64,000 bases of DNA from Pseudomonadota bacterium (GTDB lineage Bacteria > Myxococcota_A > Polyangia > Haliangiales > Haliangiaceae). How positions within the stretch are numbered: the first letter of the stretch is position 1; every line of letters starts with the position of its first letter. The translations under genes were made by a program, and so were the position numbers. Under the pieces are notes generated by a model. It was not told where the DNA came from and ran no database searches. It was given only the letters and a program-made list of their open reading frames with translations. The stretch lies in the NCBI GenBank assembly GCA_023386455.1, contig JAEWJO010000803.1, forward strand, positions 1,069 through 65,068, in the 5' to 3' direction. This document shows, one piece after another, positions 60,365 to 63,884 of this stretch.

Positions 60365-61381
60365 ATGGCGACCGACGTCGTTCCTGCCAGCCGCTCGCGG
60401 TCGCACGTCGCGCTGTTCGCGCTCGCGTTCGGCTACTTCGCCTGTTACGTGCCATACGGTGCGATCACGAAGGCACTGACGACGCCGGCGATCCGCGGCG
60501 ACCATGCGACCTCCGGCCTCGCGCTGCTGCCGGTGATGACGATCGCATCGCTGGTCTCGATGGTGGTCACGATCTCGAGCCTCGGCTGGTGGCACCACGC
60601 ACGGCCCGCGGGCGCGAGGTGGCCGCGCCCGACGAAGTGGACGCTGCTCTCCGGCCTCGCGACGAGCACGATCCTCGTCACGACGACCCTCGCGTACACG
60701 TTCGACGGCGTCAGCCTCACGTTCGTGATGCTCGTGATGCGCGGCGGCGTGCTGCTGATCGCACCGCTTGTCGACCGGCTCTCCGGGCGGACGATTCGCT
60801 GGTTCTCGTGGGTCGCGCTCGCGCTGTCGCTCGGCTCGCTCGCGAACGCGTTCGCCACCCGCTCGGGCACGGTGCCGATCCTGTGCGTGATCGATCTCGC
60901 GCTCTATCTGGCGAGCTACTTCGTCCGGCTGCGCCTGATGGCGAAGCTCGGCAAGAGCCGCGACGTCGCGGTCCGCCGGCGCTACTTCGTCGAGGAGCAG
61001 ATGGTCGCGACGCCCGCCGCCGTCGTGCTGATCGCGCTGATCGCGGTGTTCGCGCCGGGCAGCGCCGGGGAGCAGCTGCGCGCCGGCTTCGCGCTGTGGA
61101 CGGATCCGATGGCGGCATGGCTCGTCGCCGCGGGCATCTGCTCGCAGGGCACCGGCGTGTTCGGCGGTCTGCTGCTGCTCGACGCGAGCGAGACGTCGTA
61201 CAGCGTCCCGCTGAATCGCGCGTCGAGCATCCTCGGCGGCGTCGCCGCGTCGGTCGTGCTCGCGCTGCTCTATGCCGTCGCGTTTCCGTCGACGGGCGAG
61301 CTCGTCGGTGCCGCGCTCCTCGTGGTCGCGATCGGCGTGCTCTGGCTCGGACCGCTGCGCGATCAGCGCCCGAACGGGTGA
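60365..61381 (+). CDS. 10-TM membrane protein, possibly of DMT (EamA-like) architecture
   Basis: ORF track 338 aa. Two similar 5-TM halves. Function not recognised. Confidence 0.65.
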   Translation: MATDVVPASRSRSHVALFALAFGYFACYVPYGAITKALTTPAIRGDHATSGLALLPVMTIASLVSMVVTISSLGWWHHARPAGARWPRPTKWTLLSGLATSTILVTTTLAYTFDGVSLTFVMLVMRGGVLLIAPLVDRLSGRTIRWFSWVALALSLGSLANAFATRSGTVPILCVIDLALYLASYFVRLRLMAKLGKSRDVAVRRRYFVEEQMVATPAAVVLIALIAVFAPGSAGEQLRAGFALWTDPMAAWLVAAGICSQGTGVFGGLLLLDASETSYSVPLNRASSILGGVAASVVLALLYAVAFPSTGELVGAALLVVAIGVLWLGPLRDQRPNG

Positions 61382-62862
61382 CAGCCGGAGCAGCGCTTCG
61401 CGGTCGGCTCGTGCGCGACCTGCGCCTTGTGACAGCTCGTGCAGCTCGCGCGATCGTCGCGTGGCGCCGGCTCGTGCGCGAGGTGACAGCTCGCGCAGCG
61501 ATCGTGCCCCGTGACGACGTGCAGGCCCGGCCGCTTGTCGGCGGGATGACACGTCGCGCACGCCGGCGGTGACGCGACGCCGGCGGGGCCGTGCGCGCGG
61601 TGACAGCTGGCGCACGCGACGCGCTTGCCATGCCCCGAGCTCGCGCGATCGGCGTGGCACGTCGCACAACTCGCCTGCGGCTTGCGCGCACCGCTGTGGG
61701 TGTCGTGGCAGCTCGAGCACGCCTGGTGACCCGCGGGCGCCGTCGCCTTCTCGGCGGTGTGGCACGTCGCGCACGCGGGCGGCTGCGCCTGCGGCTGGTG
61801 CGGGCCGCCGGTGTGGCAGTTCGTGCAGGTCGCGTGGCCACGGTTCACCTCGGCGCTCTTCCGCGCGTGACACGTCGCGCATGCGGCGGGCGTGCGCCCC
61901 GGCTCGTGCGCGGCCTTCGGGTGGCAACCGAGGCAGTCTGCGTGTGGCGTCGCGGCGACCGTCGTCGCCTGCGTCGCGTGGCAGGTCGCGCACAGCGCCG
62001 CGGCGAGCACCGGACGCTTGCCGTGCGCGGTGTGGCAGTCGAGACAGTTTGCCGTCGCGTGGTGCGGCTTGTCGTGGCACGTCGTGCAAGCGACCGCCTT
62101 CTGCACGCCGAGCGTGTGCGGCCGGTGGCAACCGACACACGGTCCGTGGCCCGCCGGCGACGGATGCTCGACGCGCTCGTCGGCGTGACAGCTCGTGCAC
62201 GGCTTCACCTGCGAGGCATCGAACTCGTGGGCGACGTGACAGCTCGTGCACTTCGGATGGCCGGCGGTGATCGCGCGCGCGTCGACGGCGAGCGCGCCGC
62301 GCTGCGTGCTGTGGCAGCGCGCGCAGCCCTGATCCGCGACGAGCGTCTGCTCGTGCATGCGGTGACAGTCGAGACACGCGCGCTTGCCGGGGTGCGTGTT
62401 CTTCTCGTCGGCGTGACAGGACGCGCACGGCTTCGGATCGGTCGCCGGCGTGCGATGCGCGGAGTGACAGTCGGTGCAGGTCTCGCCGGAGTGCGCGCCG
62501 ACGGCGGGCGTGTGCAGGCCCTGGCTCTCGGCGTGACAGCGCATGCAGTTGCCCGGCTCGATGCCCGGCTCGGCGCCGAAGCCATGGCAGTCCTGACAGC
62601 GCGGCGCCGGCACGAGGCCGAGCGCGTCGTCGGGGTGCAGCGGCGTGCGCTTCTCGGCGTGACACTTCGTGCACAGATCGGCGGGCGGCTTCGCGAACCG
62701 ATCGTCGTGACAGCTCTCGCACGGCACGCCGTGCTTGCCGACGTGCATGCGGTGGCCGATGCTCGCCTTCACGTCGCGATACTCCTGCGGCACGTGTTGC
62801 GGTTCGCGGCGCTCGCCGCCGCAGCCGAGCAGGACGAGCGCGAGGACGACGACGCCTCTCAT
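61363..62862 (-). CDS. Multiheme c-type cytochrome lipoprotein with 25 CxxCH motifs
   Basis: Start at MRGVVVLALVLLGCG (ATG 62860-62862). I counted 25 CxxCH motifs in 499 aa, many as CxxCHxxH, in a c7/c3-type repeat pattern. Confidence 0.9.
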   Translation of the reverse strand: MRGVVVLALVLLGCGGERREPQHVPQEYRDVKASIGHRMHVGKHGVPCESCHDDRFAKPPADLCTKCHAEKRTPLHPDDALGLVPAPRCQDCHGFGAEPGIEPGNCMRCHAESQGLHTPAVGAHSGETCTDCHSAHRTPATDPKPCASCHADEKNTHPGKRACLDCHRMHEQTLVADQGCARCHSTQRGALAVDARAITAGHPKCTSCHVAHEFDASQVKPCTSCHADERVEHPSPAGHGPCVGCHRPHTLGVQKAVACTTCHDKPHHATANCLDCHTAHGKRPVLAAALCATCHATQATTVAATPHADCLGCHPKAAHEPGRTPAACATCHARKSAEVNRGHATCTNCHTGGPHQPQAQPPACATCHTAEKATAPAGHQACSSCHDTHSGARKPQASCATCHADRASSGHGKRVACASCHRAHGPAGVASPPACATCHPADKRPGLHVVTGHDRCASCHLAHEPAPRDDRASCTSCHKAQVAHEPTAKRCSGCHPFGR

Positions 62863-63884
62863 CGTGCTCCGCTCGGATGGCACAGCCGGCACGGCAGCGC
62901 GGACATCGGCTGGCGGCTCGAGAATCCCGGCGGGTGCGGGTTGCCGCCGACGCCGCCGACGGCGTGACACGACACGCACAGCTGCTCGCCGGCACCGCCG
63001 TGGCAGCTCGCACACGACGCGGGATCGCGCCGTGCCTCGCGGCCATGCAGGTTCTCCGACGAGGTCAGGCCGACCCAGCCCGCGGGATGCGGGTTGCCAC
63101 GGCCGAGGCCGGCAACGCCGCGCTCGACGTGGCAGCTCGCGCAGCGATCGGGCGCGTGACACGTCGTACACGCACCGGGGGCACTCCGCGCCTCGAGGCT
63201 GTGCCGGGCGGCGAAGCCCGCGCGGTGCACGCTCGGCGTGAACGGATCGGCGAACCGCCTCGTCGCCGGCAGGGCCGCGACCGTCGTGCCGTGACAGCTC
63301 GCGCAGAACGTCTGCTTGTGACACGTCTCGCACAGCTCGCCCGACGACGACGCGCGCGCGCCGTGCTCGCGAACCCAGTCACCGTCGTGCGCGAGGTGCG
63401 AGGCGGGCAGGGTGCCCGACTCGGCGAGATCCTTGTGGCACGACTCGCACGTGCGCGCGTTGCCGTCGTGGCACTTGAAGCAGGTCGCCATCGCCGGCCG
63501 CATGTGCTCGTCGCCGTCGGCGACACCGACGTGACAGCGCATGCAGTTGCCCTTCGCGACCGTCGGCCCGAGGTGCTTGCCGTGATCGAACACGAGGTGG
63601 TCCTTCGCCTCGACGAGCCGCTCGGCGGCGTGGTCGGGCGCGTGGCAGCCGAGGCACGACCGCGTGTCGTGCGGCCTGGCGTGGCAACCGAGGCAGCTCG
63701 CATCGTCGGGGAGGTGCAGACCGTCGCCGGAGGCGATGTCGACGTGGCAGGTCGTGCACGCGACGGCGGCGACGACGTGCGCGCGATGCGGGAACACCTT
63801 CGGCGACGACGGCTTGCGCAGGCCGAGCACGCCGGCGCACGCGGCAACGGCGATCGCGACGAGCAGGAGCCACGTGCGGTTCAC
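62859..63884 (-). CDS. Multiheme c-type cytochrome with 13 CxxCH motifs
   Basis: GTG start at 63882-63884 chosen because it makes a GTGA overlap with the upstream ORF (a GTG at 63980 is an alternative). Signal/anchor WLLLVAIAVAACAG. ATGA overlap with the 25-heme gene. Confidence 0.85.
   Translation of the reverse strand: MNRTWLLLVAIAVAACAGVLGLRKPSSPKVFPHRAHVVAAVACTTCHVDIASGDGLHLPDDASCLGCHARPHDTRSCLGCHAPDHAAERLVEAKDHLVFDHGKHLGPTVAKGNCMRCHVGVADGDEHMRPAMATCFKCHDGNARTCESCHKDLAESGTLPASHLAHDGDWVREHGARASSSGELCETCHKQTFCASCHGTTVAALPATRRFADPFTPSVHRAGFAARHSLEARSAPGACTTCHAPDRCASCHVERGVAGLGRGNPHPAGWVGLTSSENLHGREARRDPASCASCHGGAGEQLCVSCHAVGGVGGNPHPPGFSSRQPMSALPCRLCHPSGAR

Follow-up and report, generated by a model that had tools for sequence, protein, structure and literature searches.

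The locus analysed here poses the question of which system two overlapping genes for exceptionally heme-rich cytochromes belong to. The genes lie at the end of a 64,000-nucleotide stretch of contig JAEWJO010000803.1 (assembly GCA_023386455.1, Haliangiaceae), which in its full length we call the window. Gene A encodes a lipoprotein with 25 heme-binding CxxCH motifs, and gene B, directly upstream, one with 13. The original prediction, made from the DNA letters of the window, took the pair for a long heme wire for periplasmic or extracellular electron transfer. Our analysis indicates that A and B close an operon of seven genes and about 64 hemes, which is conserved among uncultured myxobacteria of soil and is split over two contigs in this assembly. 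We estimate a probability of about 70% that this operon encodes a porin-cytochrome (Pcc)-type conduit leading from the quinone pool to the cell surface by way of an outer-membrane barrel. This model draws on which genes are present and how far they are conserved and linked, on the families to which they were assigned, on the fold of the barrel and on the conservation of heme ligands.

A recount of the motifs returned 25 and 13 CxxCH, as originally counted, and neither product contains the variants CX3CH, CX4CH or CxxCK. All but one of the 51 cysteines of A lie inside motifs, the remaining one being Cys14 of the lipobox (LLGC); in B this holds for 26 of 27, with Cys16 as the lipobox residue (VAAC). 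The 55 histidines of A comprise 25 proximal ligands and 30 others, so that bis-His ligation of every heme is possible. A second histidine two residues after the motif, which had also been pointed out, occurs eight times in A (CHSAH, CHRMH, CHVAH, CHRPH, CHTAH, CHDTH, CHRAH and CHLAH), always at odd-numbered hemes. The ATGA and GTGA start/stop overlaps that had been described are both present, with the small caveat that B could start at another GTG 12 nucleotides farther upstream. The motif content of A is far above chance expectation: across six frames of the whole 8.3-Mb genome only 19 open frames hold at least four CxxCH motifs, and A is the densest of them.

Mature A (486 residues; computed holo mass about 66 kDa, with heme making up 23%) has 19.4 residues per heme, or 17.9 over the heme-bearing span. 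Published values include 22.4 residues per heme, called a "remarkably high" density (PMC7399161), about 33 for MtrA (PMC5566968) and ratios "as low as 20" (bioRxiv 2025.05.29.656830), which places A at or just past the published limit. The placement of A at the upper end of heme density was therefore borne out, but this density is not unique. An exhaustive scan of 1.84 billion representatives found 573 relatives of A, and members of the family reach down to 17.2 residues per heme. The relatives include forms with 33-35 hemes at 21-22 residues per heme and a 73-heme, 1,466-residue protein at 20.1 (L087, 3599-7999, GCA_945787465.1). The gene for the 73-heme protein adjoins that for a 277-residue cytochrome; no barrel was called nearby and the context is unrelated. 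Cytochrome c7 and STC have about 23 residues per heme, and the repeat region of A, with 17-18, is denser than any structure-solved cytochrome known to us.

The available evidence indicates that A and B are genuine cytochromes with 25 and 13 hemes, and that both are selectively maintained. GC content at third codon positions is 0.89-0.90 in the proposed frames. Compared with their orthologs in the closest relative, the Kofleriaceae metagenome-assembled genome (MAG) Bin8.14 (locus L011), A is 85.5% and B 88.3% identical at the amino acid level, with 45/39/141 and 28/17/89 nucleotide differences at codon positions 1/2/3. This excess of differences at position 3 points to purifying selection on both genes. 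When A is aligned with 70 homologs (36-57% identity), the 25 motifs and about 22 additional histidines are invariant or nearly so, including both histidines of each of the di-heme units described below. Relatives of A differ by whole di-heme units, some of them having one extra; 23-28 hemes are common and a subgroup has 32-35. In B, 13 motifs and 14 additional histidines are invariant across 75 species-level orthologs, and the mature length is held at 326-347 residues. The genome is 97.9% complete and contains cytochrome c maturation genes.

The N-termini of the two families behave differently. About 40% of A orthologs have no lipobox and begin with an uncharged helix of 19-24 residues followed by Arg or Pro, which would be typical of an inner-membrane signal anchor; in the orthologs from Polyangiaceae a transmembrane helix replaces the lipobox that A itself has. 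In B, the sequence C-A-G-V-L-G-L/F that starts at the lipobox cysteine (residues 16-22) is kept across the 75 orthologs, with Cys16, Ala17, Leu20 and Gly21 conserved in at least 90%. Such conservation is unusual in a lipoprotein tether, and these residues may be a sorting or barrel-docking signal.

The window ends 29 nucleotides short of the contig end, within the gene upstream of B, and we read the remainder of the operon from relatives and from contig C476 of the same assembly. On two long contigs of relatives with A homologs, the same seven co-oriented and mostly overlapping genes are found in the order g1, g2, g3, g4, g5 (the barrel), g6 (B) and g7 (A). Genes g1 to g4 and the first codons of g5 stand at the start of C476 (g5 start, in a GTGA overlap, L003 1-24; L003 is C476), whereas the last 46 residues of g5, encoded at the end of the window, are 61% identical to residues 358-403 of the g5 protein of relative L001. 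Contig C476 and the window contig (C730) both align collinearly to L011, with a nucleotide identity of 84-85%. Sized by this collinearity, the assembly gap between them is about 1,026 nucleotides and falls inside g5, and the two are by this comparison neighbouring contigs of one genome. The porin-cytochrome components that had been suspected beyond the window were thus found, as a barrel gene directly upstream of B and as OmcA/MtrC and NapC/NirT genes on C476.

The remaining operon products were assigned by family models. The g1 protein matches its OmcA/MtrC model at 376.3 bits (cut-off 209.3) over profile positions 8-672 of 672 and has 10 CxxCH motifs, and g2 scores 56.8 bits (cut-off 27) against the Geobacter CxxxxCH model. 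The g3 protein, with a hydrophobic N-terminus, three CxxCH motifs and one CX4CH, scores 30.4 bits (cut-off 24.1) and is a NapC/NirT-family member for which quinol oxidation is predicted; together with g4 we read it as a candidate quinol-oxidising inner-membrane module. The heme sites of the operon add up to 10 + 12 + 4 + 13 + 25 = 64.

The g5 family has at least 818 members at 56-74% identity to the L001 protein, none of them named and none with a Pfam domain. Searches of two g5 orthologs against Pfam and NCBIfam at E values up to 1 returned no match, including none to the MtrB/PioB family PF11854. An AlphaFold model of the L001 ortholog, built from 51 sequences, consists of 19 long antiparallel strands (predicted TM-score, pTM, 0.71), and all 50 of its top 50 Foldseek matches are outer-membrane barrels, among them the FimD/PapC usher pores, OmpU, porins, LptD, BamA and VDAC. 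Judged by this model, g5 encodes an outer-membrane beta-barrel of roughly 20 strands. The barrel gene of one Polyangia genome (G140:C3:3625363-3626515) is in two adjacent pieces in different frames, possibly a frameshift or a pseudogene.

The architecture of A differs from the triheme c7/c3 polymer that had been proposed as its building block. When the units were aligned by hand on their motifs, the motif spacing alternated between 17-18 and 14-25 residues, which defines a di-heme unit of the form [CxxCH-x2-4-H-x9-10][CxxCH-x6-19-H-x2-3], 31-42 and typically about 35 residues long. The CxxCHxxH form marks the odd-numbered half of each unit. Ten such repeats make up most of the protein, a definition that the original prediction had left to further work, and only the N-terminal segment of about 75 residues matches c7. 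Models above their Pfam cut-offs in A were PF14522, PF14537 and PF02085, and the N-terminal head also weakly matches the pentaheme ActA subunit 6f0k_A. Mature A consists of 16% Ala, 11% His, 10% Cys and 9% Pro and is nearly free of Leu, Ile, Phe, Met, Tyr and Trp, so that the hemes must form its core.

Structure searches placed A only in broad terms. Its AlphaFold model has high local but low global confidence (pLDDT 86, pTM 0.52) and contains only short helices, located at the motifs. A Foldseek search of this model against the PDB gave nothing significant (best E = 2.9), and single-sequence searches of the PDB gave only weak matches to c7, ActA and STC. The A-family profile matched solved structures of generic c3-type arrays only, namely HmcA, MtrA (6r2q_A), GSU1996, the nine-heme cytochrome and MtrC/F. 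B, which also has a PF14522 match, combines a c7/ActA-like N-terminal half and a C-terminal half (residues 193-339) that matches domain II/IV of MtrC/MtrF (PF22113, 36.9 bits, cut-off 30). The features of the window and of the operon genes on C476 are collected in the table.

Table. Features of the cytochrome operon; positions are those of the window unless a contig is named
Feature	Position	Strand	Description	Family or basis
Gene A (g7)	61363..62862	minus	499-residue lipoprotein precursor, 25 CxxCH; operon gene 7	
Gene B (g6)	62859..63884	minus	341-residue lipoprotein precursor, GTG start, 13 CxxCH; operon gene 6	
B/A start/stop overlap	62859..62862	minus	ATGA	read from sequence
Barrel gene/B start/stop overlap	63881..63884	minus	GTGA	read from sequence and reading frame
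c7-like module of A	62533..62757	minus	N-terminal, residues 36-110, hemes 1-4	PF14522 Cytochrome_C7, 61.9 bits
Di-heme repeats of A	61393..62478	minus	ten in tandem, residues 129-490	spacing table
3' end of g5	63881..64000	minus	predicted outer-membrane beta-barrel of about 400 residues, cut by window and contig end	
g1	contig C476		decaheme lipoprotein of about 720 residues with collagen-like linker	TIGR03507 OmcA/MtrC
g2	contig C476		cytochrome of about 400 residues, ten CxxCH and two CX4CH	TIGR01904 (Geobacter CxxxxCH domain)
g3	contig C476		NapC/NirT protein of about 220 residues (212 in the operon here)	PF03264
g4	contig C476		two-helix membrane protein of 73-96 residues (77 in the operon here)	

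A two-gene Pcc of Anaeromyxobacter has been described that consists of a porin-like protein and a 12-14-heme cytochrome of 338-344 residues (Shi et al. 2014, PMC4245776), and this pair is believed to cross the outer membrane in the same way as MtrA inside MtrB (PMC4245776). The operon here likewise joins a barrel of about 400 residues and about 20 strands to a multiheme cytochrome, B, whose 13 hemes in 341 residues fall within the published range. An Anaeromyxobacteraceae MAG also has a B homolog beside a barrel homolog. On sequence and model, barrel and B would be the counterpart of the Anaeromyxobacter-type pair, and the identical architecture together with the tightly conserved length of B fits a barrel-sheathed wire. 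In the Geobacter Pcc the genes run from porin to periplasmic cytochrome to outer lipoprotein cytochrome, the last being the least conserved (PMC4245776). OmbB-OmaB-OmcB of Geobacter sulfurreducens, as published, has the gene order of our operon, and in both the third gene encodes a variable lipoprotein cytochrome. The differences are that B is here a lipoprotein too, that 25 hemes instead of 12 are present in the third cytochrome, for which sister lineages have a transmembrane anchor, and that the operon brings along its own NapC/NirT quinol dehydrogenase as well as a decaheme of the OmcA/MtrC family.

MtrCAB with CymA (Shewanella oneidensis, 6R2Q) resembles the operon in having a NapC/NirT dehydrogenase, a heme wire in a barrel and a surface decaheme, and g1 is a bona fide member of the OmcA/MtrC family. 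The A-family profile matched 6r2q_A at E = 1e-16; we take this 333-residue chain to be MtrA from its length and context, and its label 'Cystathionine beta-synthase' looks like a slip. Against the MtrA/DmsE model TIGR03508, A scored only 18.7 bits (cut-off 192.2) and B gave no match. The barrel here is half the size of that in MtrCAB and gave no match to its Pfam family, and Shewanella uses small soluble periplasmic carriers in contrast to the 25-heme tethered protein found here. The PCC3 systems of Sideroxydans, Leptothrix and other Proteobacteria, compared by their description (He et al. 2017, PMC5566968), also combine a porin with two heme-rich, repeat-built cytochromes. Those proteins are of low complexity, rich in Ala, Thr, Ser and Gly, and are proposed to be molecular wires that span the periplasm. 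They differ in host phylum and in their inner-membrane protein, which has about 300 residues, five helices and two WX3HX13H motifs, whereas the operon here has NapC/NirT and a 77-residue protein; no gene for a PCC3-type inner-membrane protein of this size was found in L001, L002 or L011.

Among single cytochromes, the GSU1996 dodecaheme family (3ov0) forms elongated multi-domain chains of bis-His hemes that are seen as wires or capacitors, and the A-family profile matched it over most of its length (E = 3.5e-14). It is built from triheme c7 domains of about 75 residues, in contrast to the di-heme repeat of A, and its density is 26.5 residues per heme (318 residues, 12 hemes). The 16-heme HmcA of Desulfovibrio gave the best match of the A-family profile to a solved structure (E = 1e-17 to 1e-19). 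Both have c3-type arrays of bis-His hemes and the match is generic to c3-like motifs; HmcA, however, has about 32-35 residues per heme, is globular and multi-domain, and belongs to another membrane complex (Hmc). We rejected the DFE clusters of Desulfovibrio ferrophilus as the closest analogue, which have NHL beta-propellers and no barrel, and a conduit of peat Acidobacteriota and Verrucomicrobiota, which in the portion of the preprint available to us is assigned to those other phyla. One preprint remarks on numerous novel multiheme clusters, in addition to MtrC, in MAGs of Myxococcota. In the literature searched, we found no description of this operon in Polyangia or of this combination of components, which makes the combination new there, although a porin-cytochrome conduit as such is of a known kind.

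Profile searches detected the barrel in 145 species-level genomes and B in at least 187. Among the 80 best of the 145 barrel carriers, nearly all are Myxococcota, mostly Kofleriaceae, Haliangiales and Polyangiaceae, with single records from Nannocystineae, Labilithrix and Byssovorax and a few stray labels. All of these 80 are metagenome bins. A search for a cultured carrier found none, and the only single-contig genome checked that has the gene set is also a MAG. The barrel occurs in 39 of 401 genomes sampled evenly across the phylum and is absent from three members of the window's own genus, so that its distribution in this sample is patchy.

All 75 loci have a B homolog next to the barrel gene, and the order barrel, 13-heme cytochrome and 23-27-heme cytochrome is kept in every locus where all three are readable but one, in which the last has 20 hemes. 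The components g1 to g4 lie upstream of the barrel in loci of the Haliangiales type. Polyangiaceae have these components rearranged, with a divergent NapC gene and with convergent genes for g2-like cytochromes and for cytochromes that have a collagen-linked MtrC domain. Two genomes with long contigs show two further gene orders, one with all seven parts and the other without g1; g3 and g4 stay neighbours in both. Four distant Myxococcota genomes, including the Anaeromyxobacteraceae MAG and a Bradymonadales MAG, have only the barrel and a 13-heme B homolog, at 33-38% identity.

In the variant operon L086 (4707-16782), a Rieske protein, a cytochrome b, a 9-heme cytochrome and a 33-heme relative of A precede the barrel, which is followed by a B homolog (37% identical), a 12-heme lipoprotein and a 9-heme lipoprotein with an Ig domain (Big_2). 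The barrel of this operon was matched by hhalign at 95% probability. Its gene content suggests that the inner-membrane module of the conduit is interchangeable, with Rieske protein and cytochrome b in place of NapC.

Other heme-rich proteins are encoded in the genome of the window. A second 25-heme cytochrome (L254 on contig C718, 180-6902; 818 residues, 29.7 residues per heme over the heme-bearing span) is flanked by genes for an 823-residue iron-sulfur protein and an 802-residue protein without a family, and would represent a different system. Distant B paralogs with 13 hemes (28-30% identity) are present on contigs C687 (L255, 17000-28000; 1223-5807) and C236 (L005). The paralog on C687 adjoins a 15-heme protein, and no barrel homolog was found beside the paralogs on either contig.

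Upstream of the operon on C476 (4301-8014) lie genes for a hemerythrin (4301-4723, minus strand), HemN (4726-6096, minus strand), a USP protein, a HemG-like protein with a Flavodoxin_5 domain and a CBS protein. HemN and hemerythrin are also found upstream in L001. We presume that hemN and the HemG-like gene serve oxygen-independent heme synthesis, and the placement of HemN and hemerythrin hints at anoxic regulation and a local heme supply. A scan of C476 for sigma-54 promoters gave no more matches than expected by chance. On the other side of A, a gene on the plus strand (60365-61381) for a 338-residue multi-helix membrane protein without a Pfam or NCBIfam match converges on A, the 3' ends overlapping by 19 nucleotides, and the DNA alignment with L011 runs about 300 nucleotides into the 3' end of this gene. 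We rejected it as part of the system; it is not a homolog of the gene at that position in L002.

In the conduit as we propose it, the tetraheme NapC/NirT protein g3 and its two-helix partner g4 would oxidise menaquinol in the inner membrane. A, held to a membrane by its N-terminus, would conduct the electrons over the periplasm and may also store charge; its hemes would be bis-His ligated, and the c7-like head and ten di-heme repeats would together form the wire. B, sheathed by the g5 barrel, would move the electrons through the outer membrane, where g1, with its collagen-like tether, and the 12-heme g2 would pass them to external acceptors, for example Fe(III) or Mn(IV) oxides or humic matter. 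Of the long heme wire originally predicted, conserved and coupled cytochromes of a long heme pathway stand; the location of A, like the direction of electron flow and the identity of the cytochrome that fills the barrel, is what we infer. With g3/g4 as an inner-membrane module and g1/g2 as surface-type cytochromes, A would be the link between inner membrane and barrel. We lean towards a periplasmic A, since about 40% of its orthologs have the signal-anchor-like helix, its relative in L086 sits between inner-membrane genes and barrel, and the operon offers other candidates for the surface in g1 and g2. Several observations weigh against this picture. No sequence relation of the barrel to MtrB/PioB was detected, the supposed barrel-threaded cytochrome B is a lipoprotein, unlike MtrA or OmaB, and the model of A was built without hemes. 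Moreover, A has a lipobox, the gene order of the Geobacter Pcc would place it at the surface, and its conservation is low, with a mean column identity of 26% compared with 61-64% for B and 52% for the barrel.

The last three of these observations lead to the rather unlikely alternative that the complex is the same but A is extracellular, like OmcB, as a 25-heme lipoprotein wire off the outer membrane, with B alone bridging the periplasmic face and the barrel. The order barrel, 13-heme and 25-heme cytochrome mirrors ombB-omaB-omcB, and the outer cytochrome is the most variable member of a Pcc (PMC4245776), just as A shows the lowest conservation among the three and varies between 23 and 35 hemes. 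Its lipobox has Gly at +2 in the window's lineage, and the extracellular cytochromes of PCC3 have a median of 34 hemes (PMC5566968). However, the A orthologs that have a hydrophobic N-terminal helix instead of a lipobox would fit an inner-membrane anchor better than a lipoprotein of the surface, the operon already has two dedicated surface-type cytochromes, and in L086 the 33-heme relative stands after Rieske protein and cytochrome b and ahead of the barrel, the Ig-domain lipoprotein cytochrome coming last. The conduit could also run inwards, since NapC/NirT proteins are reversible quinol/quinone couplers. Electrons from Fe(II) minerals, reduced humics or partner cells would then reach the quinone pool or periplasmic denitrification enzymes, and the homologous designs MtoAB, PioAB and PCC3 have been proposed for uptake (PMC5566968). 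The original prediction had the pair potentially feed NirK, NosZ or the monoheme-CcoP (cbb3) oxidase; by that account these would be encoded on the contig, and a nos cluster would lie in the window. Nothing that we found links the operon to these enzymes specifically, no linkage to nir or nos genes was seen in relatives, and the gene context points outward to the surface. An OmcA/MtrC-family decaheme is characteristic of metal-reducing systems according to the TIGR03507 annotation, and oxygen-independent heme synthesis genes beside the operon fit anaerobic respiration, which together make inward flow unlikely. Finally, A and B might be purely periplasmic stores or distributors of electrons, their linkage to the barrel being incidental. 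A capacitor function has been proposed for heme-dense cytochromes of the periplasm (PMC7399161), and A and B are both at most candidates for a place in the barrel. This is nevertheless very improbable given the GTGA overlap of the barrel gene with B, their adjacency in all 75 loci and in the four distant genomes, and the constant length of B.

Returning to the conduit with a periplasmic A, the dimensions of the wire would suit its proposed place. The width of the periplasm is on the order of 200-250 Å. A length of about 100 Å is given for the ten-heme MtrA (PMC4245776, PMC5566968), and at its roughly 10 Å per heme a linear 25-heme chain could reach 200-250 Å. We offer, as a tentative step beyond the conduit itself, that the 24-27-heme protein is a single-chain tethered wire that hard-wires the inner-membrane dehydrogenase to the barrel across the whole periplasm. 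If this is true, an A-type wire replaces the diffusible carriers of Shewanella and Geobacter, and it does so with a minimal di-heme repeat of about 35 residues and essentially no hydrophobic core.

The repeat of A is of interest to protein engineers, as it shows how few residues hold a long heme chain. Soils, peat, sediments and activated sludge harbour abundant Polyangia (Kofleriaceae, Haliangiales, Polyangiaceae), which are usually seen as aerobic predators and polymer degraders. The operon suggests that many of them can respire extracellular iron, manganese or humic matter in the absence of oxygen, or draw electrons from these, and such respiration would alter how the role of Polyangia in soil redox cycling is read.

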